Assembly (NCBI GenBank): GCA_963702835.1
Contig: OY969762.1
Location: forward strand, 2,181,501-2,245,500
DNA: 64,000 bases
Direction: 5' to 3'
Source of the DNA: Candidatus Aminicenantes bacterium
GTDB lineage: Bacteria > Acidobacteriota > Aminicenantia > Aminicenantales > JAFGAV01
The notes below the pieces were generated by a model that was not told the origin of the DNA, made no database searches, and saw nothing but the letters and a program-made list of their open reading frames with translations. Positions 11,965-47,342 of this stretch are shown piece after piece. The position numbers were made by a program, and so were the translations under genes. Position 1 is the stretch's first letter. Each line of letters opens with the position of its first letter.

Positions 11965-11965
11965 G

Positions 11966-22778: not shown

Positions 22779-22834
22779 GGAGCCTCCTTTTGGCCAATAC
22801 TAACGGAAGAAATCGGCTAAGTCAACAGATAGAA

Positions 22835-23362: not shown

Positions 23363-23373
23363 GTCAGGATCTA

Positions 23374-24006: not shown

Positions 24007-24062
24007 GGAGCCTCCTTTTGGCCAATACTAGCGGAAGAAATCGTCTAAGTCAACAGAAAGAA

Positions 24063-24665
24063 TCAGAATTTGTATCCGGCTAAAACCGTCCAGGTGGAAG
24101 TGCGGACGGATTCGCCGGGGAGGGGGTTCTTGATCATGTTGGACAGGCCCAACTGATAGCGGACTTCGAGCGAAACGGCCATGGAACCAAGGGCCAGCTG
24201 GTACCCTCCGCTGAAAACCAACCCGTATTGAAGCCGGCTGACCTCATCCTTAAGGTCCATTTCGCCGCTGCCCCAATCATATTTATATTTGATTTTCGAG
24301 TTCAGCACGTACCCGACCCCTGCTCCGGCGCCCAGGAAAGGCGTTGAGCCGGGCCCCAGGCGAAGCTTGAATAGGACGGAGAGGGCCAGGGCCGAGCCTT
24401 CATAGGTCAGAGTCCCGACTTCTCTTTCAAACCGGCAGCCGCCCGGAGCGTAGGATAGGTCTACCTCCAGGGCTAGAAACTTGGCCAGGCCGATCTCAAA
24501 CCCCAACCCGCCAGCCGGCAGAATTGAGGTTTTCTGTTTGCCCAGGTCTTCGGAAAAATTCAGGTTGGCCAAGGCCGCCCCGGCCTGCACTTTGAACGCA
24601 CCCCAAGCCGCTGAGGTCAGTCCCAAGCAGACAGCCATCAGCAAAGCCATGCGTCGGTTTCGCAT
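24063..24665 (-). CDS. Outer-membrane beta-barrel protein, type B copy 2 (full length)
   Basis: MRNRRMALLMAVCLGLTSAAWG signal peptide, with GGGGAGGAGAG upstream of ATG 24665 (the track ORF starts further upstream at 24719). Ends AGYKF. Confidence 0.8.
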   Translation of the reverse strand: MRNRRMALLMAVCLGLTSAAWGAFKVQAGAALANLNFSEDLGKQKTSILPAGGLGFEIGLAKFLALEVDLSYAPGGCRFEREVGTLTYEGSALALSVLFKLRLGPGSTPFLGAGAGVGYVLNSKIKYKYDWGSGEMDLKDEVSRLQYGLVFSGGYQLALGSMAVSLEVRYQLGLSNMIKNPLPGESVRTSTWTVLAGYKF

Positions 24666-24850
24666 TTCTCTCCTCCCCACAGCTTCTTTATTTCTATGCT
24701 TTTTGCGGCTCGGCATCAACTTGCCTTAAAAACAAGGCATCCCCTTCAACTGGCGCAATGAGCCGGAGAGATAGAGTTGACAGAGGCCCCTATCAATATA
24801 AAAATAACACTCTATGAACCTCCTGCCCGGAACAGGAGAAAGGAGCCGAA

Positions 24851-33140: not shown

Positions 33141-33264
33141 TTTCGTTTTCTCCTTTCTGGCTTCTTCGTTGAGGTGCATTGTCATCACCTTCCACACTCT
33201 TTATACAAGCCGGAGGAAGAGGATGTGTCACCGGAGGGTAAAAGAATTGTAAAAAAAACGTAAA

Positions 33265-34941
33265 TCAGGCGGTCCGTTTGATAATGACCAGGGTGGTGTC
33301 GTCGAAAGGATTGACGCCGGCGGTGAATTCCAGGAACAGCGCCTTAAGCTCCTGCAGGATTTCGTTTGCCGGCCGGTGGAAGTTGCGCCGGAGGAAGTCG
33401 ATGATCCGCTCCTCGCCTAGCTCCTGGCCGGATTTGTTGCGGCTCTCGGTCAGGCCGTCGGTAAAGATCAGGATGATATCTCCGCTCTCCACCTTGGTCT
33501 GCTTGGCCTCGTAGGCGGAACCGGGGAACATGCCCAGGCACAGGCCGCAGGGATCCAGGTGCTCGGTCTTGCCCCGGCTGTTGAGGACCACCGGCGGGTT
33601 GTGCCCGGCGTTGACGTAGCGTACCTCGCCCGTCCTGAGGTTGAGCTCACAGAAGACAAAGGTGATGAAGCTGTTGGCCGCCGAAGAGCGGTGGACGAAT
33701 TCGTTCAGCCGGGCGGTCATGGCCGTCAGGTTGTAGCCGGGGTTGAGCTCGGTATGGAGGGAAGCCCGCAGGGAGGCCATGAGCAGGGCGGCGCTGACGC
33801 CCTTGCCCGAAACGTCGGCCACCACGATGCCCATCCGTTCGTGGTCTATGGGGATAAAATCGAAATAATCTCCGCCCACCTCGTAGCAGGGCAGGTTGAG
33901 GCCGGACACCTCGAACCCCTTCATCAGGGGGCTGTCCTTGGGCATGAAGTCGCGCTGGATCTGAGCGGCCAGGGCCAGCTCCTTATCCATGCGTTCCTTC
34001 TCTATGATTTGTTCCACCTTGCGGGAATTCTCGATCTTGACCGCGGCCAGGTTCGACAGCAGCGTCAGCAGCCGCAGGTCCTCCTCGGAAAACTGTTCGA
34101 GATGTGAGACGCGGTCGGCGTAGATGATGCCGATGACCTTCTCGTTGTTCCACAGGGGCACGCAGGCCGCCGAATGGATATGGGAGGTGATGATGCTGTC
34201 CCGAGCCTTGAAGCGGGGGTCGGTCGAGGCGTCCAAAGTCCTCACTGCCAGTTGCTGCTCATTGGCCATATTGACGATCGTCTGGCTGAGCAGCAGCTTC
34301 TGGTTCTTCAGGCTCGGCTCATTGATGCGGACCACTTTGGGGATGAGCTGCTCGGGGCTGCCTTCCTTGAGCAGGAGCACGCCGCGGTCCATGGGCAGGT
34401 ACTGGCAGATGAGGTCCATGATGTAGTCCAGCAGCTCGCCCAGCGGGCGGTGGAGGAGAAGAGCCTGGCTGACCTCGGTCATGACCGCGTACATCCTGTG
34501 CTCGGCCCTGAGGCGCTCCAGGTCCTCGGGCTTGGCCAGGGCCCGCGTGGCCGGCTGGTCGGCCGGTTTCTTCAGAATTTCGTTGAGCCGCATGATGGTG
34601 TTGAAGCTGGTGGAGGGTAGGGGGCCGTCGGACACCTCGACGTTGGTCAGAAGCTGCCGGTCCAAGCTGAGGCGCGTTTGGCCCAGGAGGATCTCATCCC
34701 CGGGCCGGATTTCGACTTCGCCGGCCACCCGCTTGCCGTTGAGGAAGATGCCGTTCTTGCTGCCGGCGTCCCGAATCAGGTACCGGCCTTCGCTCTGGAC
34801 CAGGACCGCGTGGCGGCTGGAGCAGAAGGGATCGGGCAGGGCCAGGGTGTTGTCCGCCGAACGGCCTATGGACACCTCGCCCCGGCCCAGGGGAATGGTC
34901 AGCGCATCGCCCCTTTTAGGATAAACATACAGGGTGGCCAT
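33265..34941 (-). CDS. FHA-GAF-PP2C (SpoIIE/RsbU-type) serine phosphatase
   Basis: 558 aa with an N-terminal FHA domain (GRSADNTLALPD...SSRHAVL...DAGSKNGIFLNGKRV), a central GAF-like region and a C-terminal PP2C/SpoIIE domain (GGDYFDF...VADVSGKG...FTDGLTE). Confidence 0.85.
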   Translation of the reverse strand: MATLYVYPKRGDALTIPLGRGEVSIGRSADNTLALPDPFCSSRHAVLVQSEGRYLIRDAGSKNGIFLNGKRVAGEVEIRPGDEILLGQTRLSLDRQLLTNVEVSDGPLPSTSFNTIMRLNEILKKPADQPATRALAKPEDLERLRAEHRMYAVMTEVSQALLLHRPLGELLDYIMDLICQYLPMDRGVLLLKEGSPEQLIPKVVRINEPSLKNQKLLLSQTIVNMANEQQLAVRTLDASTDPRFKARDSIITSHIHSAACVPLWNNEKVIGIIYADRVSHLEQFSEEDLRLLTLLSNLAAVKIENSRKVEQIIEKERMDKELALAAQIQRDFMPKDSPLMKGFEVSGLNLPCYEVGGDYFDFIPIDHERMGIVVADVSGKGVSAALLMASLRASLHTELNPGYNLTAMTARLNEFVHRSSAANSFITFVFCELNLRTGEVRYVNAGHNPPVVLNSRGKTEHLDPCGLCLGMFPGSAYEAKQTKVESGDIILIFTDGLTESRNKSGQELGEERIIDFLRRNFHRPANEILQELKALFLEFTAGVNPFDDTTLVIIKRTA

Positions 34942-35000
34942 GTTCGGTCGAGCGCTTTGATTGTAGCCGGGCGGCGGTCAAAATTCAAGAAGGTGAGGAA

Positions 35001-37484
35001 CTATCCGCCGACCCTGTCCAGCGCCTTAAGCAGGCGGCGGGCGTTCTTGGCCTTCTCCGCCAGCGGAATGTCATCCACCAGCGGCAACAAATAGGGTTTG
35101 ATGTCTTTGTCCAGCAGGCTGTCCAGCAGCTCGATCGAATAATCAATGGCCTTCTTGGTACCGGCCAGCAGGTTCTGATAGGCTTTGCGGATGTCCTCAG
35201 CCGGGTAGATGAGGCCGAGCAGAGCGAAGATGCTCTTCAGAAACCGAGACAGGGAGGGCTCCAGGCCGCGGGCTAAATCATCCTTCTTCTGTCCGGGGCT
35301 CAATTCGGTCAGCTCCTGGAGGCTCATATAGGATCGTTTGAGGAGGCGGAGCACGCCGCTGTCGATAATGGAATCAGAGAAAACAAGGTCGGGGTGGGCG
35401 GACTTGATTTTGGCCATGGCCTCGATCAGCTCGGCCTCCAGGTCCGCCCCGTCCCGGCCAAACTCCTGCTGCAGGATGTCGGCCGCCCGCTGGGTGCCGA
35501 TGCGGGCCAGAATGTCCGGAATGGCCCGCCGCAGCCGCAGGTCCTCTTGGGGGTCGGCCAGATAATCCTTGAGCGCGCCGACGATCTTCTCTCCGTATTC
35601 GACCAGCGCCCGGCTGGCCGCCTGAGCCACCGCCGGCCGGGCCAGGCCGGCCACGACGTAGGGCAGGAGGTCGCGCCGCTTCAAGCGGCCGGCGCTGTCT
35701 AGGGCATAGTTGGCCACTTCGGCTGATTCGTCCCGCAGCAAACGGACCAGGTTGCCGCCCAGCGTAGAATCGGCATCCATCAGGCCCAACGCTTTGGCCG
35801 CCTCCAAGCGGGCCGTCTCCGACTCCCGGCTGCGGCCGGCCATCACTTTTTTAAAATATCGGCCGATGGTTTCCTGATAAATGCTCAGGTTCATGATTTT
35901 CTGAACCTCGGCGTCGAGCGCCTCCTCGGGCAGGCTGTCGTCCAATTCCGGGAACAGCGTTTCGCCGTCCACCCCGAGGAGAGAATCCAGAGCTCCAGCC
36001 CGCAGCTCCCCCGACCGCTGGGCGATAATCCGCCTCAGTTCGGGGCTAAGCTGCTCGCGATGGATGAGGTCGTACAGGTTCATGGCATAAAGGACCGAAC
36101 TCCGGTTCCGGCTCTCCAGGGTATCGAACACGAGCTTGGTCATGTCCACATCGATCTGCTCCAGGACCAGGCGGTCGGCGTCCTCCCACTTGATCTTGAG
36201 GTGGTTCTTGACCTCTGAAGCGTATTCCCGGGTGATGAGGACGGCCAGGGCCGCCCAGCCCAGGGCGAAGGCGGCCGCCAGCAGGCTCACCCCCCGCACC
36301 GTGAGCGGAAGAACGAGGAGCAGGATGGCGGCGATGGCGTCGGCGAATTTGTTGACGAACATGTCGATGAAGACTTTGGCCTTGTATTTGATGTCCGCCG
36401 GGACGGGGATGTAGAGCAGTTCCCGAATGGACTGGTTCAGGGTATGGCTCAAGCTCTTATCCAAACCCTTGACCGGGACCGCCCAGAATAGGAGCGAGGC
36501 GACGGGCACGAAAAAGATGGCTCCTGCTCCCAGGACCATCAAGGCCGGCGCCACCAGCAAGCCGGTCAGAAGGCCGAAGTGCTTGAGGATACGGTTGGCC
36601 AGCAGAAGATTGAGCAGAGTGGAAAAGACCAGCAGCCCCAGGAAGAACGTGCCCAAAAAGGAGGTCAGGGCATCTTTATGGGGAAAAGCTTTATTCACGA
36701 TCGCGCTGAATTGGTAGTCCAGCAAGGTGGTCACCACAATGCCGGAGAGCATGAGCCCGGCCAGCAGGACGAGGTAGCGGTTCCGCCGCACGATTCGGAA
36801 GCTCTCCGCGTAGCCGACCTTCTGACGGTCGCGGCTGGCCGAAGCTTCGGGCTTGGCCTCCCCTTCCTCCCGCCGGAAGGCTCCCAGGCGGCGGACGACG
36901 AGCAGGGCCAGGGCCAGCAGGGCCGGGCAGATCAGGAGAAGGTTTTCGGTGCCGAGGACTTTGGCCAAGCGCCAGGCGAGGAGAGCGCCGGCCACCCCGC
37001 CCAGCAGCCCGCCGCTCACCAGGAAGGTCACCAGCCTCCGTGCCTGGCGCGGGTTGTAGATGTCGTTGACCATCATCCAGAATTGCATGACCGAGGTGAC
37101 GATAAACAAGTCGGACCAGAACCAGAATATAATGGACAGCCACGGCCAGCGGAAGCGGAACAGCCACCAGAAGAGAAACAGGTTGGAGATGAAAAACAGA
37201 AGGCTGGCGGAGAGGTAGGCCAGCCGGTCGAGCCGGGCCAGCAGCCGGGAGTTGAGGGAGACGGCCAGGATCATCAACGCGGCGGTGAGGAGGTAGGCGT
37301 AGGGCAGCCGCTCGATGTGCATCCTGTCCAGATAGAGCGACAGCTTGACGGGCTTGATGACATAGACGGCGAAGGTGATGAGGAAAAAATAGAGGAACAG
37401 CCCGAAAACCGGCCGGGATTCATCGGGCCGGACGTCGGTCAGGCGCTTCAGGAACCGATAGCCCAGGCCCTCCGGCCCCTTCAC
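35001..37484 (-). CDS. TLC/Npt-like (ATP:ADP antiporter family-like) MFS transporter fused to a C-terminal HEAT-repeat domain
   Basis: 827 aa. The N-terminus FLKRLTDVRPDESRPVFGLFLYFFLITFAVYVIKPVK plus about 11-12 TM helices resemble TLC/Npt carriers. The C-terminal ~380 aa is helical with PBS-lyase/HEAT-like repeats (ARLEAAKALG...LLRDESAEVANYALDSAG). GTG start in a GTGA overlap with the upstream paralog. Confidence 0.7.
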   Translation of the reverse strand: MKGPEGLGYRFLKRLTDVRPDESRPVFGLFLYFFLITFAVYVIKPVKLSLYLDRMHIERLPYAYLLTAALMILAVSLNSRLLARLDRLAYLSASLLFFISNLFLFWWLFRFRWPWLSIIFWFWSDLFIVTSVMQFWMMVNDIYNPRQARRLVTFLVSGGLLGGVAGALLAWRLAKVLGTENLLLICPALLALALLVVRRLGAFRREEGEAKPEASASRDRQKVGYAESFRIVRRNRYLVLLAGLMLSGIVVTTLLDYQFSAIVNKAFPHKDALTSFLGTFFLGLLVFSTLLNLLLANRILKHFGLLTGLLVAPALMVLGAGAIFFVPVASLLFWAVPVKGLDKSLSHTLNQSIRELLYIPVPADIKYKAKVFIDMFVNKFADAIAAILLLVLPLTVRGVSLLAAAFALGWAALAVLITREYASEVKNHLKIKWEDADRLVLEQIDVDMTKLVFDTLESRNRSSVLYAMNLYDLIHREQLSPELRRIIAQRSGELRAGALDSLLGVDGETLFPELDDSLPEEALDAEVQKIMNLSIYQETIGRYFKKVMAGRSRESETARLEAAKALGLMDADSTLGGNLVRLLRDESAEVANYALDSAGRLKRRDLLPYVVAGLARPAVAQAASRALVEYGEKIVGALKDYLADPQEDLRLRRAIPDILARIGTQRAADILQQEFGRDGADLEAELIEAMAKIKSAHPDLVFSDSIIDSGVLRLLKRSYMSLQELTELSPGQKKDDLARGLEPSLSRFLKSIFALLGLIYPAEDIRKAYQNLLAGTKKAIDYSIELLDSLLDKDIKPYLLPLVDDIPLAEKAKNARRLLKALDRVGG

Positions 37485-39970
37485 GGCCGCGCCTCCGGCA
37501 GGTCTTTCAACAGGGAGCGGAAGCGCCGCACCCGCTCGCGGAGCGGATAGTCCTCCAAGATGGGGAACAGGGCATCCCTGATGTTTGTGTTCAAGAAACT
37601 GTCCAGGAGCTCCAGGGCATAGGCCCTGGATTCCCGGGTTCCGGACAGCCAGTTCTGGTAAGCTTTGAAAATATCTTCATGGGCATAGACCAGGCCCACA
37701 AGCTTGAAAATGCTTAAAAGGACCGCTTCCAGAGTCCTGGGCCGGTCCGGCCCTTCGGCCTTAACCGTTCCATCGCCGGAGCCCTCCTTGGCCTCGGCCA
37801 GAAAGGCCTGATAGTAGCGCTTGAATTCCTGCTCGAGCTTTTTCAGGACCAAGGCCGGATCAAAACTGACCTTGGCCTGGCCGGACCGGACCCTGTCCAG
37901 GGCGTCGATGATTTCGTCATCCAGGTCCCCTTGGCCGCAGCCGAGTTGCCAGAGCAAAAAATCCACGGCCTCCTGGTTCCCCACCCGGCCCAGAGCGGCG
38001 GCCATGTTTTTCCGCCGCTCCAAAGGCTCATGAACATCGGCCAAATGGTCGGCCAGGGTCCCAGCGATCCTGGCCCCGTATCTCTCCAGGGCCTCGGCGG
38101 CGTCCTGCCTGAACCTGGGGTCGCCCAGCCGCCGCACCAACTCGGGCACAAACTCCCGGCGGCCCGATCGTCCGGCGCTGTCTATGGCGTAGCGGACAAC
38201 CTCGGCCGAATCGTCTGCCAGCAGATCCTCCAGCCGCTGCACCAGGGGGGATTGTCCGGGCAGGAGGCCCAGCATCTTGGCGATTTCCATGCGGGTCACG
38301 GCGTCGGTGGCTTTTCGCTCCCCCAGAGTCCGCTCCAGGTAGCCCTGCATGACCTCCTGATAGACGTCCAGGGCCATGATCTCCTCGACATCGCGCTTCA
38401 GCGCCTCCTCCTCGGGCGCGCTGAATACTTGGGCCAGCGGCCCGGCCGACTCCGACTCGATCAAGCCGGCCAAGGCCGAGGGCCGCCCCTCCTCGGGCTC
38501 GGCCAGGAGAAGCGTTCTGACCTCGGGGGTCAGCTTGTTCTGCCGGATAAGCTCGTAGACATGCAGGGCGTAGAGGACCGGGCTCCGCCGTCGGCTTTCC
38601 AGCAGGTCGAAGACGGTTTTGGTGAAAGCGACATCCACCTGCACCTCGACCAGACGATCCCCGCGGTCCCAGCGGCCGCGCAGTTTTTCCTTGATGAGGC
38701 GCACGTAATCGGAGCCGGCGCGGAAGTTGAGCCCGATCCAGGCCACCAGACAGAGGAGCGACAGGAAGCTGACTTTCAACAAATCATGGGGCCAGGGCAG
38801 GGCCAAAGCCCCCAGCAGCAGAAGAGCCCCCAGGGTCCTGGAAAGACGATTGAGGAACATGTCGATAAAGACCTTGGCCCGGTATTTCTGCTCGGGAGCC
38901 ACCGGAAAATAGAGCAGTTCGCGGGCGGACTGGTTGACCGAATAGGACAGGCTTTTCTCGCTGCCCTTGAGGGCCACGGCCAAGGCCAGCACCGGCCAGG
39001 CCGTGAGGCCCAGGGTGCAGGCCAGGATGATCACCGGGTAGAGAAGGAGAATGCGGCGTATTCCGTAACGGTCCACGAAGCGGCTGGTGCCCAGGAATTG
39101 GAGCAAGAAGGAGAAGACCAGCAGCCCGGAATTGAACAGGCCGAAAAAGGAGGTCAGGTTGCCCCTGACCGTCCTCTCGATGACGTGCTTGGACTGCCAG
39201 TCGATGAAGGTGGCGATCAGGCCGGAGAGCAGGACGATCCCGGCCAGGAGGCGGAGGTAACGGTCCTGCCGGACGGTCTGCAGGCCATCCCTGAAGCCCG
39301 CCTTCTCCTGACCGGCCGAACGGCCGGCCGTCTGGGCCGGACCGGGGGGAGCCTCAGCCGCCCGTTTTCTCTGCTGGCCATAGACCCGATTCACGACCGG
39401 GATGGCGGCACACAGCAGGCCGCCGCTCAGCCACAACAGATTGTAGGACCATCGATCGGCCAATACATAAGTCAGGAGGCCGCCCAGGATGCCGCCCAGA
39501 ATGCCGCCGCTGACGATGAAACCGATGAGCCGTTTGGCCTCCCGGGGATTGTACACATCATTGACCGCGATCCAGAACTGGGTCATCAGGACCACGGCCA
39601 GAACATTGGCCCACACATAGTAGACCAGAACCAGCCACTTTCCGCTGCGGGGAAAAAGAAAAAAGAAGGCCGTGCCGGTCAGGGCGAAAAAAAGCAGAGT
39701 GGCGACGAGCAGCGATTGCCGCCTGACCCGGGCCTGGAGCCTGGCCATGAAGGCGGCCACCAGGGCAACGAAAAAGGTCGTGGCGTAGGCCAGGGGAAGG
39801 TTCTCCGAACCCAGCCGGTTGAGGAAGCTCGCGTCCCTGATGCTCTTGAAGATGGTGAAAGGCGCGGTAATGAGGAAGAAATAGAAGAAAAAGAGGAGTG
39901 CGGTCGCCTCCTCGCCGGGCTTGACCCACGGCAGGCGCGGGAAGAACCTTGAAGGCCGATCCATCCGCAT
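37481..39970 (-). CDS. TLC/Npt-like MFS transporter fused to a C-terminal HEAT-repeat domain (paralog)
   Basis: 829 aa with the same architecture as 35001..37484 (PGEEATALLFFFYFFLITAPFTIFKSIRDA...; C-terminal LLADDSAEVVRYAIDSAGRSG...). Confidence 0.7.
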   Translation of the reverse strand: MRMDRPSRFFPRLPWVKPGEEATALLFFFYFFLITAPFTIFKSIRDASFLNRLGSENLPLAYATTFFVALVAAFMARLQARVRRQSLLVATLLFFALTGTAFFFLFPRSGKWLVLVYYVWANVLAVVLMTQFWIAVNDVYNPREAKRLIGFIVSGGILGGILGGLLTYVLADRWSYNLLWLSGGLLCAAIPVVNRVYGQQRKRAAEAPPGPAQTAGRSAGQEKAGFRDGLQTVRQDRYLRLLAGIVLLSGLIATFIDWQSKHVIERTVRGNLTSFFGLFNSGLLVFSFLLQFLGTSRFVDRYGIRRILLLYPVIILACTLGLTAWPVLALAVALKGSEKSLSYSVNQSARELLYFPVAPEQKYRAKVFIDMFLNRLSRTLGALLLLGALALPWPHDLLKVSFLSLLCLVAWIGLNFRAGSDYVRLIKEKLRGRWDRGDRLVEVQVDVAFTKTVFDLLESRRRSPVLYALHVYELIRQNKLTPEVRTLLLAEPEEGRPSALAGLIESESAGPLAQVFSAPEEEALKRDVEEIMALDVYQEVMQGYLERTLGERKATDAVTRMEIAKMLGLLPGQSPLVQRLEDLLADDSAEVVRYAIDSAGRSGRREFVPELVRRLGDPRFRQDAAEALERYGARIAGTLADHLADVHEPLERRKNMAAALGRVGNQEAVDFLLWQLGCGQGDLDDEIIDALDRVRSGQAKVSFDPALVLKKLEQEFKRYYQAFLAEAKEGSGDGTVKAEGPDRPRTLEAVLLSIFKLVGLVYAHEDIFKAYQNWLSGTRESRAYALELLDSFLNTNIRDALFPILEDYPLRERVRRFRSLLKDLPEARP

Positions 39971-40004
39971 CCTTCGCCTTTAGGCGTTCGGTCCGGCCCG
40001 GGTC

Positions 40005-40352
40005 TCAGTCCTTGAGAAAACTCTGCAGGGCCATCTCCTCTTCGTCAAAGATCTCCAGCACCTTGGTCAGCATGGTGATTTGGAAGATGAGATAGAGCTT
40101 CTTGGAAATCCGGGCGATTTTGAGCTTGCCGCCCAGGTTGTGAGTGGAGATGTAGCTGGCCAGGATCTCGCCTACGCCGAAGCTGTCGATGAACTCGACC
40201 TTTTCAAAATTGAGCAGGATGTGCTTCTTCCCGGATTCGAGCTGGTCCTTGACCAGTTGATGGAGGGTCAGGTCGGTGATGTCGGAGCGTCTGATCTCCC
40301 CCTCGATATCGAAAATAACGATATCGTTCTTTTCGCGTTTCTTGATGTCCAT
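40005..40352 (-). CDS. STAS-domain anti-sigma-factor antagonist-like protein (SpoIIAA/RsbV type)
   Basis: 115 aa. NFEKVEFIDSFGVGEIL keeps the phosphorylatable Ser of the DSSG-type motif. It is the first gene of the minus-strand operon. Confidence 0.85.
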   Translation of the reverse strand: MDIKKREKNDIVIFDIEGEIRRSDITDLTLHQLVKDQLESGKKHILLNFEKVEFIDSFGVGEILASYISTHNLGGKLKIARISKKLYLIFQITMLTKVLEIFDEEEMALQSFLKD

Positions 40353-40414
40353 CGGTTGTCCCTACCCTTCGCCGGGAACGATCGCCCTATGGAATGAGAT
40401 TGGCGCTACCCTAG

Positions 40415-40443
40415 CTTTTACCAGAAGACGGCCGGCCTGTCAA
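40415..40443 (-). promoter_or_regulatory. Putative sigma70 promoter of the STAS-led operon
   Basis: On the minus strand: TTGACA (40443..40438), 17 nt spacer, TAAAAG (40420..40415), about 60 nt upstream of ATG 40352. Confidence 0.4.
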
Positions 40444-40749
40444 TCAAAGAGGGAAGGCATCCTTTTTTCCTTGATTTGAAGCGATAAGGATGGGTCCTGT
40501 CGCGGTGCATTCCCTGAATGTCCACATCATAATAACAGGCCGGGAAGCTGGCCGGAGCGGTCTCGCTCCCGGGAAGGTTTTTAACGCCGTTCCCTGATGG
40601 TCGCTGCGACCGCCCCGGCCATCTCCCCTTCGAGAAAAACTCATTAAATTTGATTCAGATACATAGGGGTTAGCACCGCGCCACCCATCCACTTTGTCTC
40701 TCCGGATGCTTATCGGAAAAAAGGATACCTTTAAAAAGGGAAGATAAAC

Positions 40750-40778
40750 TTGAACAATCTTGGCTGTTCTTCTAGTAT
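40750..40778 (+). promoter_or_regulatory. Putative sigma70 promoter of the phosphatase/kinase-like operon
   Basis: TTGAAC (40750..40755), 17 nt spacer, TAGTAT (40773..40778), about 30 nt upstream of ATG 40811. Confidence 0.4.
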
Positions 40779-40810
40779 TTAAATGGAGAATAAATAAGAA
40801 AGGACGGGAA

Positions 40811-41851
40811 ATGAAAAGAAAAGCAGGTCTCAAAATCCTGCTTGGATTGTTAGCCTTCTGCCTGCCCCTGTGCGCCGAGACCCCCTGTATCTGGACGGGA
40901 GTGGAGCGGATCGTAGCCGTGGGCGACCTGCACGGCGATTATGCCAATTTCGTCGCCATCCTTGAAGGAACGAATGTTGTGAACCGAGACCTCCACTGGG
41001 TCGCCGGCCGGACTCATCTGGTCCAGACCGGCGACATCCTGGACCGGGGGCCCGAAGGCAAGAATATCTTCAACCTTTTGATAAACTTGGAAAGAGAGGC
41101 TGAGGCCGCAGGGGGGCATGTCCACTGCCTGACCGGCAACCATGAGGAAATGAACATGGCGGGCATCGCCTTTGATTATCCCGAGTATATGACCGTGGAG
41201 CAGTTCCTGTCTTTCCTGCCCGATGGCTACCAACAAATGAGAGAAAGCCGGTTTCGGCAAAGATGGGTAGCCCAGAATCGCTCCGCCACTCGCGACGATG
41301 GTCCGCCGCGTAAAGCTTTGCACGATTTCTGGACGGAGGTGATCAGCTCCGACCAGGAGGCCCGGTCCCAATATCTCAAATTTTTTCGCCAACACTACGG
41401 CCAGTGGATCGCCCAGCACAATGCCGTGATCAAGATCAACGAGACGGTCTTCGCTCACGGCGGCATCAACGAGAAATATTCCTTGAAGCCGCTGGCCGAG
41501 ATCAACGACATGGTGCGTTCCGATTTTCAGGACCTTTTAAGCCAAAGACAATTTATCCCCAAGGTTCTCTATGCCCGCGACAGCCCGATGTGGGATCGCG
41601 ATCTGGCCCAGCAGGACGAGGCCCTCTTTGAGGACACGGTGAATTCGATCCTGGCCCATCTCGGAGCCCGGCACATCGTCATCGCCCACACGCGCCTGAC
41701 CCCCCCTTCGGCCAAAGCCATGGAACGTTTCGGGGGGAAAGTGTGGGACATCGATACGGGCATTTCCTCGTTCTACGGCGGTCATCTGAGTGCCTTGATA
41801 ATCGAAGGGGATAATTTTCAGGTTTGGGGGTTGAGCGATGAACATAACTAA
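40811..41851 (+). CDS. Exported PPP-family (calcineurin-like/Shelph-like) metallophosphatase
   Basis: Signal peptide MKRKAGLKILLGLLAFCLPLCA, with the GDLHGD, GDILDRG and GNHE motifs in canonical order. The track ORF starts earlier (40760). Confidence 0.85.
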   Translation: MKRKAGLKILLGLLAFCLPLCAETPCIWTGVERIVAVGDLHGDYANFVAILEGTNVVNRDLHWVAGRTHLVQTGDILDRGPEGKNIFNLLINLEREAEAAGGHVHCLTGNHEEMNMAGIAFDYPEYMTVEQFLSFLPDGYQQMRESRFRQRWVAQNRSATRDDGPPRKALHDFWTEVISSDQEARSQYLKFFRQHYGQWIAQHNAVIKINETVFAHGGINEKYSLKPLAEINDMVRSDFQDLLSQRQFIPKVLYARDSPMWDRDLAQQDEALFEDTVNSILAHLGARHIVIAHTRLTPPSAKAMERFGGKVWDIDTGISSFYGGHLSALIIEGDNFQVWGLSDEHN

Positions 41852-42641
41852 AAACTTAGGGCTGGCGGCCCTTATGTTGACCGGAATCGGCTTGAGCCTG
41901 GCCTGCCGGCCGCGAACTATGCCCCCCCCGCCCTCTCCCGGCGAGCTTCTGGAACGGTTCCTGCTCGAAGCGCGGGTAACCGCCGTGGCCAAAGAACTTC
42001 AGTCAGGCCGGATGAGTGCCTGGCTGGTGACGCTCAATGACGGGAAAACGACGCGGAAGGCCTTCTTCAAATCCGTCCGCCGGCCAAGGCCGACCCTGAT
42101 GCCTGACAGCTACACCTATGAGCTGGCCGCTTTTGCGCTAAACAAACTCCTCGGCTTGGAACTAGTGCCGATAACTGTGGAGAGGCAAATCGACGGCCGG
42201 AGCGGCTCTCTGCAGCTGTTTCTGGAAGGCGTTGAAACAGAAAAGTCCAGGCTGCTCAAAAATCTCCAACCTCCGGATCTGCAGGCCTATCAGGATCAAC
42301 TTGATGAGATCACCCTGTTGGAAAACCTGACCTGTACCCCCCGGCAGGATCTGGGAGATATTCTGATCCAGACGGACACCTGGAAGGTGTGGCGGGTAGA
42401 TTTTTCGGAAGCCTTCATGCCGGCCAGGGAGCTCCAGCCGGAACGTCTCATCCGGCGCGCCTCACGAAGGTTCGTCAATGCCCTGCGCAACTTGGACGAA
42501 GCGCTGGCCCGGCGGAGGCTGGCCCGCTATCTCAATGCCTCCGAAATGGAGGCCTTGTTCAAACGCCGGCAGCTCATTCTCGACGAGATTGACCGGCTCA
42601 TCAAAGAAAAAGGAGAAGCCGCCGTCCTTTTTTCTCCTTAG
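41838..42641 (+). CDS. Exported PI3K/PI4K-like kinase-fold paralog 1 (catalytic motifs degenerate; probable pseudokinase)
   Basis: 267 aa with a hydrophobic N-terminus ending LSLAC. It aligns with paralogs 2 and 3 (DSYTYELAAFALNKLLGLELVP, GSLQLF), but the catalytic loop reads TCTPRQDLGDIL and VDFSEAF. 14-nt overlap with the phosphatase gene. Confidence 0.55.
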   Translation: MNITKNLGLAALMLTGIGLSLACRPRTMPPPPSPGELLERFLLEARVTAVAKELQSGRMSAWLVTLNDGKTTRKAFFKSVRRPRPTLMPDSYTYELAAFALNKLLGLELVPITVERQIDGRSGSLQLFLEGVETEKSRLLKNLQPPDLQAYQDQLDEITLLENLTCTPRQDLGDILIQTDTWKVWRVDFSEAFMPARELQPERLIRRASRRFVNALRNLDEALARRRLARYLNASEMEALFKRRQLILDEIDRLIKEKGEAAVLFSP

Positions 42642-42751
42642 CTTTCCCCGGCCTGACACATCCGCCCATGTTGATATTTGATTTTAGCCGGCGTCTTATT
42701 TAAGATAAGGCCATAAGGGAGCGGAAGCACGAGCCGGCGGGGAGAAAATAA

Positions 42752-43591
42752 ATGAAAAAGGGGCGAACAGCCGTATGTGCCGTTTTCATTTTTCTGGCCC
42801 TGGGCTGGGGCCAGCGCGCTGGGGGGCAGTTCACCGCCGCCGAGCTGGCCCAACGGCCGAAATGGGAAGAATTCCTCAAGACGGCCGAGATCGTCAAATG
42901 GGAGGATATCGGCGAGGGCGTGACCAAGCCGGTGAAGCTCTATCTCCAGAAAGGCGACTTGGAAGCCAAAGCGGTGTGGAAGAATCCCAGCGCCATCCAG
43001 ATGGGTGTCCCGGACAGCTGGACATACGAAATCGCCGCCTATGAGATGGACAAGCTCATCGGGTTGAACATGGCGCCGCCCACCGTGGAGCGGGAATTCC
43101 AGGGCAAGAAGGGATCGCTCCAGCTGTGGGCCACGACCAAGTACTCCTTGCTCAAGATCATGGAGCAGGGACTCTCCATCCCGGAAGCGGCCCGGGAGAG
43201 CACCGACAAGATGAAATATGTCGTCCGAGTGTTCGACTGCCTGATCGCCAACGACGACCGAACCCAACAGAACCTCTTGTACACCGAGGACTGGCGGACG
43301 ATCGTCATCGATCATTCCCGGGCCTTCCGCTCCACCAAAGAGTATGTCCAGAGGCTGGTCTATGGTCGAAACGGCATTAAGAGCGCCGAGGGACGGCTCC
43401 TTCTCTTTCGCCGCGTCCCGCGGAGCCTGGTGGACAGTATCCGAGCTCTCGACGCAAACAAGATCCGTCAGGCCGTCGGCCCTTATCTCAGCGAAGAAGA
43501 GATCCAGGCCGTCATGGCCCGGCAAAAACTCCTGCTTGAGGAGATCGCCCTCATGATCAAAGAGCAGGGGGAAAACGCGGTCTTATACTGA
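42752..43591 (+). CDS. Exported PI3K/PI4K-like kinase-fold paralog 2
   Basis: 279 aa with a signal peptide, AVWK, DSWTYEIAAYEMDKLIGLNMAPPT, LIANDDRTQQNLL and VIDHSRAF. Confidence 0.6.
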   Translation: MKKGRTAVCAVFIFLALGWGQRAGGQFTAAELAQRPKWEEFLKTAEIVKWEDIGEGVTKPVKLYLQKGDLEAKAVWKNPSAIQMGVPDSWTYEIAAYEMDKLIGLNMAPPTVEREFQGKKGSLQLWATTKYSLLKIMEQGLSIPEAARESTDKMKYVVRVFDCLIANDDRTQQNLLYTEDWRTIVIDHSRAFRSTKEYVQRLVYGRNGIKSAEGRLLLFRRVPRSLVDSIRALDANKIRQAVGPYLSEEEIQAVMARQKLLLEEIALMIKEQGENAVLY

Positions 43592-43619
43592 TTCTTATGA
43601 TGTCCAAGGGAGGGGAAGG

Positions 43620-44450
43620 ATGAACAGACGCTTCATGATCCTGGTTTCCATTCTTGGCTTGGTGGGCCTAAGCCTTCCGGCTGCCGCCCAGTTCCTGCCC
43701 GAAGAGGTGGCCGAACGGGCCAAGTGGGAGGATTTCCTGACCACGGCCGAGATCGTCGGCCAGGAACAGTTGAAAGGCGAAGGGGCGGTGACCAACCCCT
43801 GGAAGCTGACCCTGAAAAAGGATGACCTTCAGCACTATGCCCTGTGGAAGAACATCAACGTGATGGTGGGGCGCTACACGGACAGCTGGAAATGGGAGGT
43901 GGCCGCCTACCGGATCGATAAGCTCTTGGACCTGAATATGGTGCCGCCCACCATGGAGCGCCGCTTCCAGGGCGACCACGGGTCAATCCAGATTTGGGCC
44001 GACGTGGAAATGACGCTCAAACAGAAAATGGACAAAAACATCAAGATGCCTTCCTATAAGATCTTCTTCTGGAACAGGGCCCTCTACCTGCAGCGATTTT
44101 TCGACAACTTGATCGGCAACGAAGACCGTCACCAGAACAACTACCTCATCACCAAGGATTGGCGCTTGATTCTCATCGACCATTCCCGGAGCTTCCGCAC
44201 CTCTAAAAAATTCACCACGGAGCTCCTCTACACCGAAAAGCGGCCGGAAGGGCCGATGGAAATGAAGGAGCTGCCCCGGACGCTGGTGGACAAGCTCAAG
44301 GCTCTGACCGCGGAAAGCGTCAAGGCCGCCGTGGGAGAGTATCTGACCGATGAAGAGGTCAAGGCCGTGCTCCTTCGGCGCGACCTGATGCTCCTGGAAA
44401 TCGACAAGCTGATCAAAAAATACGGCGGAGAAGACAAGGTCCTGTACTGA
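43620..44450 (+). CDS. Exported PI3K/PI4K-like atypical kinase paralog 3 (motifs intact)
   Basis: 276 aa with the signal peptide ...LSLPAAAQ, ALWK, DSWKWEVAAYRIDKLLDLNMVPPT, the catalytic loop LIGNEDRHQNNYLI (DRHxxN) and LILIDHSRSF. A strong RBS (GGGAGGGGAAGG) precedes the ATG. Confidence 0.65.
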   Translation: MNRRFMILVSILGLVGLSLPAAAQFLPEEVAERAKWEDFLTTAEIVGQEQLKGEGAVTNPWKLTLKKDDLQHYALWKNINVMVGRYTDSWKWEVAAYRIDKLLDLNMVPPTMERRFQGDHGSIQIWADVEMTLKQKMDKNIKMPSYKIFFWNRALYLQRFFDNLIGNEDRHQNNYLITKDWRLILIDHSRSFRTSKKFTTELLYTEKRPEGPMEMKELPRTLVDKLKALTAESVKAAVGEYLTDEEVKAVLLRRDLMLLEIDKLIKKYGGEDKVLY

Positions 44451-44492
44451 GCGGCCTCTCTTCATCCGGCGCCACCGCCTCAGCCAAGCGCC

Positions 44493-44915
44493 CTAGCCGG
44501 AAGGAATCGTCATCCACAAGGTCAGGACGTTTTGTTTTTCTTCCCGGCGGTAATCAAGGCCTTCCATCAGAGTGCGCATGAGATGAACGCCGAACCCGCC
44601 CTTGACCCCATCCCTCACATAACGGTCCAGGTCCGGCGGCTCAACGTCCCGGGGATCGAAGGGATGGCCGTCGTCCCTGATCTCGATGGTGAGCCGGCCG
44701 CCCTCGAGCCTGGCCCAAAGACGGATCTCGCCCTGGCCCTGGGCATAGGCATAGCAGATGATGTTGAGACAGGCTTCGGTCACGGCCAGCTCCAAGTGAT
44801 AGGTCGGTTCGGCCGGCAGGTTGAGCCGGACGGCGACATCTTTCAGGAAGAGGCGGACCAGGGCGACCCCGGCCATATCGCCCTGGACAACGATCTTCTC
44901 GTTCAAACCCACCAT
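44493..44915 (-). CDS. RsbW/SpoIIAB-type anti-sigma-like Ser/Thr kinase (HATPase_c)
   Basis: HLELAVTEACLNIICYAY (N-box), IRDDGHPFD (G1) and GGFGVHLMRTL (G2). I start at MVGLNEK (ATG 44915); the track ORF runs to 45038. Confidence 0.8.
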   Translation of the reverse strand: MVGLNEKIVVQGDMAGVALVRLFLKDVAVRLNLPAEPTYHLELAVTEACLNIICYAYAQGQGEIRLWARLEGGRLTIEIRDDGHPFDPRDVEPPDLDRYVRDGVKGGFGVHLMRTLMEGLDYRREEKQNVLTLWMTIPSG

Positions 44916-44984
44916 TTTTCGATTTCCCCACCATTTTACCAGAACAGGCATCGGGGAGAAACTTTTAATGTTGGATTGCCGGAT

Positions 44985-45013
44985 TTGACATTTTGCAGAT
45001 GATCCATTAAGAA
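44985..45013 (+). promoter_or_regulatory. Putative sigma70 promoter of the TLC-EF-hand gene
   Basis: TTGACA (44985..44990), 17 nt spacer, TAAGAA (45008..45013). An AAGGAGGG RBS precedes ATG 45048. Confidence 0.35.
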
Positions 45014-45047
45014 ATAGACATTCAACGGGAGTGGACAAGGAGGGACT

Positions 45048-46556
45048 ATGAGCGATTCCCCCGGCTCACCCAACGTTTTCTATAAGTTCCTCAGGCTGTT
45101 CACCGACATCCGGCCCGGAGAGGCGCCCAAAGCCCTGCTCCTAGCCCTGAACATTTTCCTGTTGCTCCTAGCCTATTATCTCATCAAGCCGGTCCGGGAG
45201 GCGCTCTTGCTTGTGGATAAAGACGCGCCCAGGATCAAGAGCTATCTCAGCGGCGCCCAGGCCTTCCTCCTGGTCTTCGTCATCATGGCCTTCAGCCTCC
45301 TTGCCTCCAAGGTGCCCCGGCATAAGCTCATTACCTGGGTGACCCTATTCTTCATCTCCAACTTGGTCATCTTTTATATCCTGCACCTGGCGGGCGTCGG
45401 CGCCGGCGCCATGGGCATCGTCTTTTTTATCTGGATCGGTATTTTCAACCTGCTGGTGGTGGCCCAGTTCTGGGGTTTCGCCAATGATCTCTACATAGAT
45501 GAGGTCGGCAAGCGAATTTTCCCCCTGATCGCTTTCGGCGCCACCCTGGGCGCCGTAACCGGCAGCCGAATCGCCAAGCTGATCATCGAGCCTCTGGGCA
45601 AGTTTAACTTGATGCTCCTCTCCGGCGCAGTGTTGGGGGTGTGCATCCTTATGGCGGTCTTGATTCATCGGCGGGAGGTCCGCTCACCCCAGAGCGGGGG
45701 ACAGCCCGACGCCCACCTGCAGGAGAAGCCGCTCAAACCGGGCGACGGATTCAGCCTGGTGGTCAAGACCCGCTACTTGCTTTACATTGCCCTGGCCATC
45801 CTGGTTTATAATTTCATCAACACCATCGGCGAATACATCATCTCCGACGTCAGCACCCGGTCGGGGGGAAAGGCTTTTGAGGCTACCTCCTCCGTTCAAG
45901 AACAGCTCAATCTTAAGTGGTTTCGGGAAAGGGATCTCAACAACGATAATATTCTGGCCGATAAGGAAGTCCCCAATAAAAAAACCTTTGAACGGCTGGA
46001 TGACAACAAGGACAAAGTCATTACTTTAAAAGAAGCGCGCGAATTTTTCATCGGGGAATATAACGGCAAGTTTTTCTCCGACTACCAGTTCCTGACCAAC
46101 ATCCTGGCCTTGGTCATTCAGTTATTTCTGGTATCCCGCATCTTCCGCTGGGTGGGAGTGGGGGGGGCGCTTTTCGTCCTGCCCTTCATCGCCCTGGGCG
46201 GGTATGCCTTCATCTCCCTGGGCGCCACCCTGCTCCTGGTCAAGTGGGTCAAGTCCTTGGAAAACGGGACGGACTATTCCTTGATGAACACCATCAAGGC
46301 CGCCTTATTCCTGGTCACGCCCCGCGAGGAAAAGTACAAGGCCAAGGCGGCCATCGACACTTTCTTCGTCCGGGGCGGGGACGCCCTGGCCGCCCTGGCC
46401 GTATTCATCGGTACGACCTTCCTGGCCATGAAGATCGAAAAATTCGCTATCCTGAACATCGCCATCGTCCTTGTCTGGCTATTACTGGCTTACCTGATCA
46501 TGCGGCAGTATAAGCTGAAAAAAGCCCAGTCGGCGGTTGTTCAGGACCATAAATAA
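45048..46556 (+). CDS. TLC/Npt-like MFS transporter with an inserted EF-hand pair
   Basis: 502 aa. FLRLFTDIRPGEAPKALLLALNIFLLLLAYYLIKPVREA belongs to the same family as the two HEAT fusions. A loop insertion carries DLNNDNILADKE (45933..45968) and DDNKDKVITLKE (45999..46034). Confidence 0.75.
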   Translation: MSDSPGSPNVFYKFLRLFTDIRPGEAPKALLLALNIFLLLLAYYLIKPVREALLLVDKDAPRIKSYLSGAQAFLLVFVIMAFSLLASKVPRHKLITWVTLFFISNLVIFYILHLAGVGAGAMGIVFFIWIGIFNLLVVAQFWGFANDLYIDEVGKRIFPLIAFGATLGAVTGSRIAKLIIEPLGKFNLMLLSGAVLGVCILMAVLIHRREVRSPQSGGQPDAHLQEKPLKPGDGFSLVVKTRYLLYIALAILVYNFINTIGEYIISDVSTRSGGKAFEATSSVQEQLNLKWFRERDLNNDNILADKEVPNKKTFERLDDNKDKVITLKEAREFFIGEYNGKFFSDYQFLTNILALVIQLFLVSRIFRWVGVGGALFVLPFIALGGYAFISLGATLLLVKWVKSLENGTDYSLMNTIKAALFLVTPREEKYKAKAAIDTFFVRGGDALAALAVFIGTTFLAMKIEKFAILNIAIVLVWLLLAYLIMRQYKLKKAQSAVVQDHK

Positions 46557-46580: not shown

Positions 46581-47342
46581 ATGAAGATGGTCACGATCAT
46601 CATGAGAACAGCAATCATTCTGGCCTTGGCAGCGGGCATCCTGGCCGGCCAGGCGCAGACTCAGGCTCAAACGCAGCCCCAGACCCCCGCCCCCCAGGAG
46701 CCGGCCTTCCGGCCGGCCCTGCTGGAGCAGCCCTTTCCCGACTTCAGCCTGCCCACCTACCAGGGCGGCAGCCTGACCCTCTCCAGCCTCCGGGGCAAGA
46801 ACGTCGTTCTCATCATTTCCCGCGTCTATGCCGGAGAAGGACGCTACTGCACCATCTGCGACTACAAGTACGCCGAAGCTGTGGAAATCGAGAATAAAGC
46901 CAAGCTCCGCGAAAAATATAATGCCGAGGTGTTGTTCCTTTTCGCCTTCAGCCGGGAAGAAGTGGCCAAATGGCTGGCGGCCTTGCCCGCTCAACTGGAG
47001 AAGATCAAAAACTGGAAGAACCCTCCGGAGCCGGAAAAACTTGACCAGCAGGGAAAAGAGCGAATGGAGCGCATGCGCAAGTTTTTTCCCCTTGACTTGA
47101 GCCTGAAGGAGGGCGAAGTCCCCCTGCCCTTCCCCCTGCTCCTCGATGCCGACCGGAAGCTGTCCAAGACTCTGGGTGTCTTCGCCGCGGAATGGAGCGG
47201 CAGCAAGGCGGACCAAGGCATCCCCAGCGTCTTTATCCTGGACAAGAACGGCGTCCTCCAGTTCAAGTACATCGGCCAGAACACGGCGGACCGGCCCAGC
47301 TACGAGTATTTGATGAAGATCCTGAACATGATCGGAAGGTAA
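46581..47342 (+). CDS. Exported redoxin/AhpC-TSA-like thioredoxin-fold protein
   Basis: 253 aa with a signal peptide and a QT-rich linker. FPDFSLPTYQGGSLTLSSLRGKNVVLI...YCTIC is a peroxiredoxin-like N-terminal pattern. It lies 24 nt after the transporter gene. Confidence 0.65.
   Translation: MKMVTIIMRTAIILALAAGILAGQAQTQAQTQPQTPAPQEPAFRPALLEQPFPDFSLPTYQGGSLTLSSLRGKNVVLIISRVYAGEGRYCTICDYKYAEAVEIENKAKLREKYNAEVLFLFAFSREEVAKWLAALPAQLEKIKNWKNPPEPEKLDQQGKERMERMRKFFPLDLSLKEGEVPLPFPLLLDADRKLSKTLGVFAAEWSGSKADQGIPSVFILDKNGVLQFKYIGQNTADRPSYEYLMKILNMIGR

Follow-up and report, generated by a model that had tools for sequence, protein, structure and literature searches.

We analysed a locus of a Candidatus Aminicenantes bacterium (Acidobacteriota) within a stretch of 64,000 nucleotides (assembly GCA_963702835.1, contig OY969762.1, positions 2,181,501 to 2,245,500 of the forward strand). 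This whole stretch is termed the window, and positions are given in its own numbering. The locus appears to encode a conserved three-part module for ATP-fuelled extracytoplasmic phosphorylation, consisting of exported kinase-fold proteins, an exported PPP phosphatase and a nucleotide-type carrier, to which Aminicenantes have added a partner switch. We estimate the probability of this reading at about 50%. It builds on domain identities, folds, signal-like N-termini, gene fusions and cross-phylum adjacency that were observed. Open reading frames (ORFs) were picked with guidance from GC content at third codon positions, and domains were assigned by Pfam and NCBIfam scans. All twelve genes listed in an initial annotation of the locus were recovered, confirming that the described gene cluster is real. 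PPP, K1, K2 and K3 (the kinase-fold paralogs) form a plus-strand operon in that order. Its start is separated by ~400 nt from a divergent minus-strand operon, in which a STAS gene comes first, followed by two carrier genes with HEAT domains (NTT-HEAT a, then b) and an FHA–GAF–PP2C gene last. An RsbW-like gene is convergent with K3 and lies outside the kinase operon, and a short carrier gene is divergent from the RsbW-like gene.

To define the conserved part of the locus, one genome per GTDB species was scanned with a PPP–kinase fusion alignment. The scan yielded 80 loci (identified below, where necessary, by L numbers) from Myxococcota, several Acidobacteriota classes, Gemmatimonadota and Gammaproteobacteria (Lysobacteraceae, Steroidobacteraceae, Chromatiales, Woeseiaceae and Thioalkalivibrio). 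The window's proteins were used as queries against all ORFs of these loci. Of 52 well-flanked loci (4 kb or more of sequence on either side), 29 had a TLC-family gene no more than 1 kb from the PPP/kinase genes; for the non-Aminicenantes loci (Acidobacteriota and Gammaproteobacteria), the count was 26 of 48. As an internal control, we compared the positions of all TLC ORF matches: 52 of 59 were within 1 kb of PPP/kinase genes, and 639 kb of far-flank DNA (beyond 3.5 kb) contained a single match, which was the outer copy of a tandem pair. Terriglobia and Thermoanaerobaculia have a long HEAT carrier, whose gene often stands between an upstream PPP gene and a downstream kinase gene of the same strand. 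A short carrier convergent with a PPP–kinase fusion is found in Gammaproteobacteria, among them the isolate Thioalkalivibrio sp. XN8. Single exported proteins of 540-900 aa that combine a signal peptide with PPP and kinase-like domains were common among representatives of the kinase-like family and occur in genomes of Myxococcota, Acidobacteriota, Gammaproteobacteria and Gemmatimonadota; one fusion carries two kinase domains, and one is from Myxococcota.

Aminicenantes relatives keep the arrangement of the window with rearrangements. Their K3 orthologs are 63-69% identical to that of the window, the short carrier is moved or lost in some of them, one or two NTT-HEAT copies are present, and PPP and K1 are separate or fused (in frame in L036, L051, L066, L067 and L071). 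The initial annotation had proposed co-localisation in related genomes as a check; the gene set was indeed found together in these relatives, and the kinase, PPP and TLC genes were found together across phyla. Clustering of the other neighbours across the 80 loci gave generic families only (TPR proteins, histidine kinases, RidA-like proteins, ABC proteins), none of them consistently associated. The arrangement is evidently not due to chance, because it recurs in Aminicenantes relatives and its core recurs in other phyla. Cross-phylum adjacency and fusions therefore define a conserved core of an exported PPP, an exported kinase-fold protein and a TLC carrier. Conserved order within Aminicenantes alone could be shared ancestry; however, inherited synteny devoid of functional meaning is highly improbable, given that fusions of PPP to kinase domains occur in several phyla, that the carrier adjoins them in two architectures (in Acidobacteriota and Gammaproteobacteria), and that TLC genes are essentially absent elsewhere in the flanks.

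K1 (41838-42641), K2 (42752-43591) and K3 (43620-44450), all on the plus strand, are 26-46% identical to one another. Alignment showed that K3 has the catalytic residues expected of a kinase: beta3 K77, helix-C E93, D169-R-H…N174 and the metal-binding D187. K2 likewise retains the Lys of beta3, the Glu, both Asp and Asn in the catalytic loop, and the Asp that binds metal. The corresponding motifs are NEDRHQNN … IDHSRSF in K3 and NDDRTQQN … IDHSRAF in K2, so the catalytic motif is intact in both. K1, a lipoprotein-type paralog with a lipobox-like LSLAC sequence, has its start codon 14 nt within the end of the PPP gene. It still has the Lys of beta3, the Glu and, within VDFSEAF, the D, and TPRQDLGD stands where N(E/D)DRxxxN is expected. 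Lacking the catalytic-loop Asp, K1 is therefore pseudokinase-like and probably a pseudokinase.

No Pfam family was clearly above threshold for these paralogs, which gave weak matches to HipA_2, PI3_PI4_kinase, Fam20C and TIGR03843. Pfam Fam20C (PF06702) scored 18.1 and 16.0 bits against a cut-off of 26.8, PI3_PI4_kinase (PF00454) 20.2 against 27.1, and TIGR03843 (SCO1664 family) 34-45 against 172 (E 2.9e-11 for K2). HipA_2 was passed marginally by K2 alone (28.5 bits; cut-off 27). Since the paralogs fall below the curated cut-offs of Fam20C, PI3_PI4_kinase and TIGR03843, they are best regarded as an unnamed relative and not as members of those families. An AlphaFold2 (AF2) model of K3, built from a 19-sequence alignment, had a predicted local distance difference test (pLDDT) of 84 and a predicted template modelling score (pTM) of 0.83. 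Foldseek comparison of this model with the PDB gave Fam20C (5yh0_E) as the top match at 1e-8, followed by PI4KII-alpha and Vps34 (E 1e-8 to 1e-6 for the three). A profile search of PDB sequences was headed by Fam20B and Fam20A and aligned the motifs EiAAyrLDkLLgL..vPP and FDnLIgNxDRHxxN…iDHsrsF. As judged from the model, K3 has a bilobal kinase fold of the Fam20/PI4K type.

The family is large, with 4494 representatives at 50% identity (E ≤ 1e-3), and its members are annotated as hypothetical proteins throughout the source databases. A crude hydropathy test found signal-like N-termini in 120 of 120 K3 homologs and in 131 of 150 family representatives. In the window, signal-like N-termini (a hydrophobic segment) are present on PPP, K1, K2 and K3, and also on an AhpC/redoxin-like and an ARPP-1 protein described below. 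The kinase fold and the export signals postulated for K1–K3 in the initial annotation were thus both borne out at the level of model and N-terminus.

Fam20 kinases depend on ATP brought into a compartment that does not make ATP. Fam20C, Fam20A and Fam20B are the best structural (5yh0) and sequence-profile matches of the paralogs, and they too are exported, into an extracytoplasmic compartment. The pairing of active and pseudokinase members also recurs: excerpts of PMC4421793 describe Fam20A as a pseudokinase paralog paired with active Fam20C, which is comparable to K2/K3 with K1. The two groups differ in several respects. Identity is only ~16%, and the bacterial proteins are far smaller (~250 aa after the signal peptide) and are fused or linked to a PPP. 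The proposed ATP supplier here comes from an unrelated transporter family. In Woeseiaceae and other gammaproteobacterial loci that have no TLC neighbour, we also observed a second exported protein of ~350 aa with the motif FEYLIGNTDF … YDFDLSG (L084, 773-1819, minus strand; also L057, L062, L064 and L068). It may represent another Fam20/CotH-like kinase family.

The PPP gene (40811-41851, plus strand; ORF from 40760) encodes a Metallophos protein with the PPP signature. Its translation contains the motifs GDLHGD, GDILDRG, GNHE and IDTG, which correspond to the PPP signature with the bacterial-type fourth motif, and begins with the signal peptide MKRKAGLKILLGLLAFCLPLCA. The closest solved structure is Shewanella phosphatase I, a cold-active protein-tyrosine phosphatase (1v73/2z72; E 2e-30 over two stretches). 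By the motif definitions in excerpts of PMC535813, the gene is predicted to encode a bacterial PPP phosphatase of the Shewanella-like (Shelph) type, and all four signature motifs are common to it and to Shewanella phosphatase I. Linkage or fusion to a kinase-fold domain and to a TLC carrier is a consistent trait of the window-type PPP, and the excerpts of PMC535813 mention no such context. The initial annotation had suggested that this enzyme acts as the eraser of the kinases; such a role is strongly supported, as far as gene structure can indicate, by the widespread PPP–kinase fusions.

The three carriers belong to the TLC family (PF03219; TC 2.A.12), as shown by Pfam scores of 43.1 bits for NTT-HEAT b, 39.9 for NTT-HEAT a and 37.7 for the short carrier against a cut-off of 21. 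NTT-HEAT a (829 aa; 37481-39970, minus strand; Pfam TLC, MFS_1 and HEAT_2) and NTT-HEAT b (827 aa; 35001-37484, minus strand; TLC at 3e-11 and HEAT_2) are 38% identical, and the start of b overlaps the stop of a by 4 nt. Each has a TLC/NTT-type domain of 12 transmembrane helices followed by a C-terminal HEAT domain of ~400 aa. The AF2 model of NTT-HEAT a (pLDDT 76.6) showed ~12 long helices before residue 445 and a helical-repeat region at 445-828, within which residues 550-705 matched alpha-Rep HEAT proteins in a PDB sequence search. The HEAT domain should be cytoplasmic, because 12 helices precede it and the last of them is followed by a basic stretch. Foldseek of this model against the PDB placed structures from 2025 of Arabidopsis NTT1 (AtNTT1) and Chlamydia pneumoniae NTT1 (CpNTT1) in the top three positions (E 1.6e-8, TM 0.70-0.74), whereas the next transporter of the major facilitator superfamily (MFS) followed at 2e-6, an E-value ~100-fold worse. 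By this model-based comparison, no other MFS transporter is as similar to the carriers as the solved ATP/ADP translocators of the NTT family. In 54 carriers drawn from all lineages, the NTT signature YS..ELLYxP....K.x.K..ID is preserved, with two near-invariant lysines. AtNTT1 K527 and PamNTT1 K446 are a conserved lysine that contacts the ATP gamma-phosphate or inorganic phosphate (Pi) (PMC2606016). The segment that HMMER aligned to CpNTT1 KVKGKAAID has K or R in all 54 carriers and K in 51 of them, although its equivalence to K527/K446 is uncertain.

The short carrier (502 aa; 45048-46556, plus strand; TLC at 1.5e-9) has no HEAT domain. Its best solved match is C. pneumoniae NTT1 (9j3n), and it is orthologous (1e-60 to 1e-82) to the carriers that adjoin PPP–kinase fusions in Gammaproteobacteria. 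The initial annotation had endowed this carrier with EF-hands. An insert does contain two 12-residue EF-hand-like loops, DLNNDNILADKE and DDNKDKVITLKE, whose pattern looks canonical by eye only. The best EF-hand Pfam score was 16.2 bits, below the cut-off of 25.4, and the insert was absent from all 14 orthologous carriers examined. EF-hand regulation as a general feature was ruled out, the insert being specific to the window's carrier. The short carrier of Thioalkalivibrio sp. XN8 (L040, NZ_JAALFH010000060.1, 11598-13361, minus strand) has a C-terminal He_PIG putative Ig domain (1.4e-9), which stands after the last membrane helix and is unexpected for a presumed cytoplasmic C-terminus.

NTT-HEAT fusions have been described, in the excerpts of Major, Embley & Williams 2017 (PMC5381601), as a monophyletic clade that is widespread in free-living bacteria and functionally uncharacterised; one Aminicenantes NTT sequence is listed there, and ATP uptake or exchange is proposed. 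That clade has the same architecture as the 827- and 829-aa carriers, namely N-terminal NTT/TLC (PF03219) and C-terminal HEAT (PF13646). The operon and fusion links reported in those excerpts are only to cyclic-nucleotide-binding domains; exported kinases, PPP and partner-switch genes are not mentioned in them. Here, a GAF/FHA-PP2C protein together with STAS and RsbW takes the place of the regulatory partner, and genes for exported kinase-fold and PPP proteins are the neighbours that are conserved.

The switch genes comprise a STAS protein similar to the antagonists RsbV/SpoIIAA (40005-40352, minus strand), an RsbW-type GHKL serine kinase or anti-sigma-like switch protein (44493-44951, ORF to 45038, minus strand) and an FHA–GAF–PP2C phosphatase of SpoIIE type (33265-34941, minus strand), which would provide the input to the switch. 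The STAS protein matched Pfam STAS (1e-11), the anti-sigma antagonist superfamily (7e-15) and TIGR00377 (54.8 bits; cut-off 53.45), and it has the phosphorylatable-serine motif F-I-D-S57-F-G-V-G. Scores for the phosphatase were 3.5e-19 for FHA, 6e-16 for GAF and 2e-50 over the full SpoIIE profile. The RsbW-like kinase (HATPase_c_2, 5e-27), which the initial annotation had placed after the plus operon, is present there but runs convergent to it. Judged by these motifs and domains, STAS, GHKL kinase and PP2C make up a complete partner-switch triad. The initial annotation had also seen all three parts and no sigma factor, in agreement with our search: no sigma-70-family ORF was detected in the 64-kb window by phmmer with an RpoD-type query at E ≤ 10, a search of limited sensitivity for extracytoplasmic-function sigmas. 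The hypothesis of the initial annotation withstood the three refuting conditions that were examined (co-localisation, fold and export, sigma factor) and is partly supported overall.

In all Aminicenantes-type loci examined, STAS lies 34-44 nt upstream of NTT-HEAT, and FHA–GAF–PP2C is directly downstream of NTT-HEAT in every such locus where it is in range. RsbW orthologs of 136-163 aa adjoin the cluster in Aminicenantes loci and are inside the same operon as STAS–NTT-HEAT–PP2C in L036, L051 and L071. The complete genome of L085 has STAS, two NTT-HEAT copies and FHA/GAF alone, with no PPP/kinase gene within 10 kb. Thus, in Aminicenantes-type loci, the only ones in which STAS, RsbW and FHA–GAF–PP2C occur together, the switch genes are tied to NTT-HEAT and not to the kinases. 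In L017, from a non-Aminicenantes acidobacterium, FHA-GAF-PP2C is directly upstream of NTT-HEAT and a PPP-kinase fusion in one co-directional block, with no STAS nearby. In L086, a 515-aa sigma gene of RpoD, primary type (7861-9408, minus strand) is divergent from the STAS–NTT-HEAT operon; it occurs in that relative only and is not conserved. Large Pkinase–TPR proteins are encoded nearby in L086 and L087.

Partner switches with non-sigma outputs are known, such as BtrU/V/W of Bordetella, SypE/SypA of Vibrio and HsbR/HsbA of Pseudomonas. They consist of the same triad (STAS with a phosphorylatable Ser, RsbW-type kinase, PP2C), also with no sigma nearby. What distinguishes the genes described here is that they are embedded in a membrane-carrier operon. 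Our literature search found no transporter described as the output of a partner switch. In Aminicenantes, the HEAT carriers would be co-transcribed with a cytoplasmic, sigma-less switch (STAS Ser57, RsbW-type kinase, FHA–GAF–PP2C). The output of the switch is most plausibly the carriers' cytoplasmic HEAT domain, and nucleotide export would then be gated on signals sensed by FHA and GAF. A role of HEAT as a regulatory docking platform would fit, because the carriers are associated with a GAF-bearing phosphatase here and with cyclic-nucleotide-binding domains elsewhere.

The switch could instead control a sigma factor or other regulator encoded elsewhere and be located in the carrier operon for co-expression only, with no gating. 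Canonical RsbW/RsbV/PP2C modules do act on sigma factors, L086 has an RpoD-like sigma gene running divergently from STAS, and HEAT carriers accompany PPP/kinase genes in other Acidobacteriota that have no switch genes. However, the negative sigma search in the window, the primary type and poor conservation of the L086 sigma, the contiguity of STAS–NTT-HEAT–PP2C in every Aminicenantes-type locus even apart from kinase genes, and the adjacency of FHA-GAF-PP2C and NTT-HEAT in a lineage with no STAS nearby make such a remote target unlikely, at roughly the level of a one-in-several explanation.

For the transported substrate, the direction, the enzymatic activity and the target, we infer the following. 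The core would consist of one or more exported Fam20/PI4K-like kinase-fold proteins, some apparently catalytically competent and some pseudokinase-like; an exported PPP of Shewanella type, which often forms a single protein with the kinase domain; and an inner-membrane carrier of the NTT/TLC (ATP:ADP antiporter) family. The carrier would send cytoplasmic ATP out and bring ADP and Pi back, and exchange would run outward because a free-living cell has high internal ATP. The exported ATP would fuel the kinase-fold enzymes, which would phosphorylate, or otherwise modify with nucleotide, an envelope target, and PPP would undo the modification. The net kinase and phosphatase reaction outside the cytoplasm would be ATP to ADP + Pi, the three substrates of characterised NTTs, which swap ATP for ADP + Pi at 1:1 (PMC2606016). 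Export of ATP would explain why three unlike genes travel together and why kinase and phosphatase are frequently fused. LpxT likewise transfers phosphoryl groups at the periplasmic face of the inner membrane; according to excerpts of PMC2229476, it uses undecaprenyl pyrophosphate and not ATP. In the module described here, kinase folds of the ATP-using type occur with a homolog of ATP/ADP carriers, which implies that the need for a phosphoryl donor is solved in another way.

These genes could also serve salvage or import: nucleotides or phosphoesters from outside the cell would be processed by the exported PPP and kinase-like proteins, and the nucleotides or Pi so obtained would enter through the TLC carrier. 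All characterised NTTs import ATP, other nucleotides or NAD (PMC2606016 and excerpts of PMC5381601), PPP weakly matches diadenosine tetraphosphatases (NF001204, 1.6e-7), and genes reminiscent of the Pho regulon or of Ppx/GppA are found near the cluster in a few relatives. We nevertheless consider this explanation quite unlikely. It does not supply a phosphate donor for an extracytoplasmic kinase, the closest solved relative of PPP is a protein-tyrosine phosphatase and not a nucleotidase, and the fusion of a kinase to a phosphatase is more readily explained by reversible modification than by a linear route of salvage. The Pho-like genes are neither adjacent nor conserved, and the window's two-component pair is not specifically PhoBR-like.

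Several results weigh against ATP-fuelled phosphorylation as the function of the module. The first concern is the substrate of the carriers, which are 18-20% identical to characterised NTTs and reach 41-45 bits on TIGR00769 (characterised nucleoside triphosphate/diphosphate exchangers), far below its cut-off of 387. Given this remoteness, a different substrate is possible. The cargo might be an organophosphate other than a nucleotide, or else a compound that the kinase itself uses or makes (for example a phosphorylated sugar, lipid head group or glycan precursor), whose phosphorylation the exported enzymes would set with a donor other than exported ATP. The organophosphate:Pi antiporters G6PT and GlpT and the lipid MFS transporters SPNS2 and MFSD2A were also significant structural matches of the carrier, the nearest relatives of the kinases include the sugar kinase Fam20B and the lipid kinases PI4KII and Vps34, and the periplasmic phosphorylation of lipid A known from LpxT is not driven by ATP. 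Nevertheless, the lead of the NTT translocators over the next MFS transporter, the Pfam TLC scores of all three carriers above the gathering score, the preserved NTT signature and lysines, and the general use of nucleotide triphosphates by kinase-fold enzymes leave this a rather unlikely explanation, slightly behind a switch target elsewhere and slightly ahead of salvage.

Other results that count against ATP-fuelled phosphorylation concern distribution, catalysis and compartment. In 22 of the 48 well-flanked non-Aminicenantes loci, no TLC gene was found within 10 kb. The stand-alone kinase-like genes of Terriglobia, which lie 3′ of NTT-HEAT (L037, for example at 14303-15154; L038, L049, L058, L075 and others), carry Gln where the beta3 Lys is expected, and their catalytic loop reads DxDxNLTN; by these motifs they appear to be a distinct atypical or pseudokinase subfamily. 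Together with the missing catalytic Asp of K1, the missing beta3 Lys in Terriglobia implies that part of the family may be non-catalytic. In most Acidobacteriota, HEAT-bearing carriers adjoin PPP/kinase genes with neither STAS nor RsbW; HEAT is therefore not simply the receptor of the switch and would have a role independent of it. Export of the locus proteins is predicted from hydrophobic N-termini. ATP could also leak from a porin-permeable periplasm, and no channelling feature was identified.

The remaining genes of the locus appear to be peripheral. The ARPP-1/DUF6569 protein (32091-33197, minus strand; PF20208, 8e-73) has a signal-like N-terminus and is encoded directly 3′ of the PP2C gene. 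The initial annotation regarded it as a possible last member of the minus operon; however, the gene was found in none of the related loci, which ruled out membership in the operon or system, and it is probably an unrelated insertion. An exported AhpC/redoxin-like protein (46581-47342, plus strand; AhpC-TSA, 1e-13) is encoded 24 nt 3′ of the short carrier. It does follow that carrier as the initial annotation described, but it lies beyond position 46556, where that annotation had ended the locus. Among the related loci the gene is present in L001-L003 only; thus, if it belongs to the module at all, it is an accessory with a restricted lineage range. Between the redoxin gene and a convergent AcrB gene, a palindromic hairpin at 47366-47440 matches on both strands and is likely a bidirectional terminator marking the right edge of the locus.

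The flanks of the locus contain unrelated genes (a resistance-nodulation-division (RND) efflux pump, a two-component pair, peptidases and tRNA synthetases). At 22146-24719 (minus strand), the window also has four tandem paralogous genes for outer-membrane beta-barrels (OMP_b-brl_2; 210, 147, 210 and 218 aa), apparently a duplicated pair. An Rfam scan of the intergenic regions revealed no riboswitch or known RNA element, giving three chance-level matches only. Promoter-like sites were no commoner than in shuffled controls, and terminator-like sites were modestly above the shuffled level (26 vs 16.1, sd 3.7); both results were uninformative. PADLOC detected no known anti-phage defence system, giving motif-level matches at 1e-4 only.

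In several Aminicenantes relatives, an SdiA-regulated/Phytase-like beta-propeller gene that is not present in the window lies inside the PPP–kinase cluster (L001, 8095-8934, minus strand; L003, 8158-9000, minus strand; L086, 705-1523, plus strand; L087, 4772-5590, plus strand). Its product is a candidate partner or substrate. Genes for PhoB/PhoR-like, PhoU and ABC-ATPase proteins were observed 5-10 kb from the cluster in L001 (17237-20828) and L003 (17524-20828), and a Ppx/GppA-like gene (2233-3744, minus strand) adjoins the cluster in L017. A link to the Pho regulon was considered and set aside as weak and unsupported, the two-component pair of the window being generic.

Each component belongs to a known superfamily, but the conserved module and its implied function match no described bacterial system. 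No paper on such a set of genes, or on kinases supplied with ATP in the periplasm, turned up in a search of open-access papers and bioRxiv, where the nearest items were the 2017 NTT survey and work on the ATP-independent phosphorylation by LpxT; this outcome is consistent with the statement in the initial annotation that no system of this composition was known. In the textbook view, the periplasm has no ATP, and envelope processes run independently of ATP or on energy transduced from the inner membrane; NTT/TLC carriers have long been taken as hallmarks of energy parasitism. We tentatively propose, at less than even odds, that free-living diderm bacteria of several phyla have a dedicated extracytoplasmic ATP supply, in which NTT/TLC exporters power Fam20-like kinases with a PPP eraser, and that in Aminicenantes a partner switch with a transporter output is the throttle. 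If this is true, the genetic coupling of exported kinases with ATP/ADP-carrier homologs would challenge the view of an ATP-free periplasm, and the NTT and NTT-HEAT proteins of free-living bacteria would gain their first concrete, testable function, a question open since their distribution was reported in 2017. At least one cultured bacterium, Thioalkalivibrio sp. XN8, has the core module. The large unnamed kinase-like family, with thousands of 50%-identity clusters, would become a source of candidate envelope kinases, and a membrane carrier would join the short list of non-sigma outputs of partner-switching modules. These bacteria would then carry out reversible ATP-dependent phosphorylation in the envelope, analogous to that of the secretory-pathway kinases of eukaryotes.

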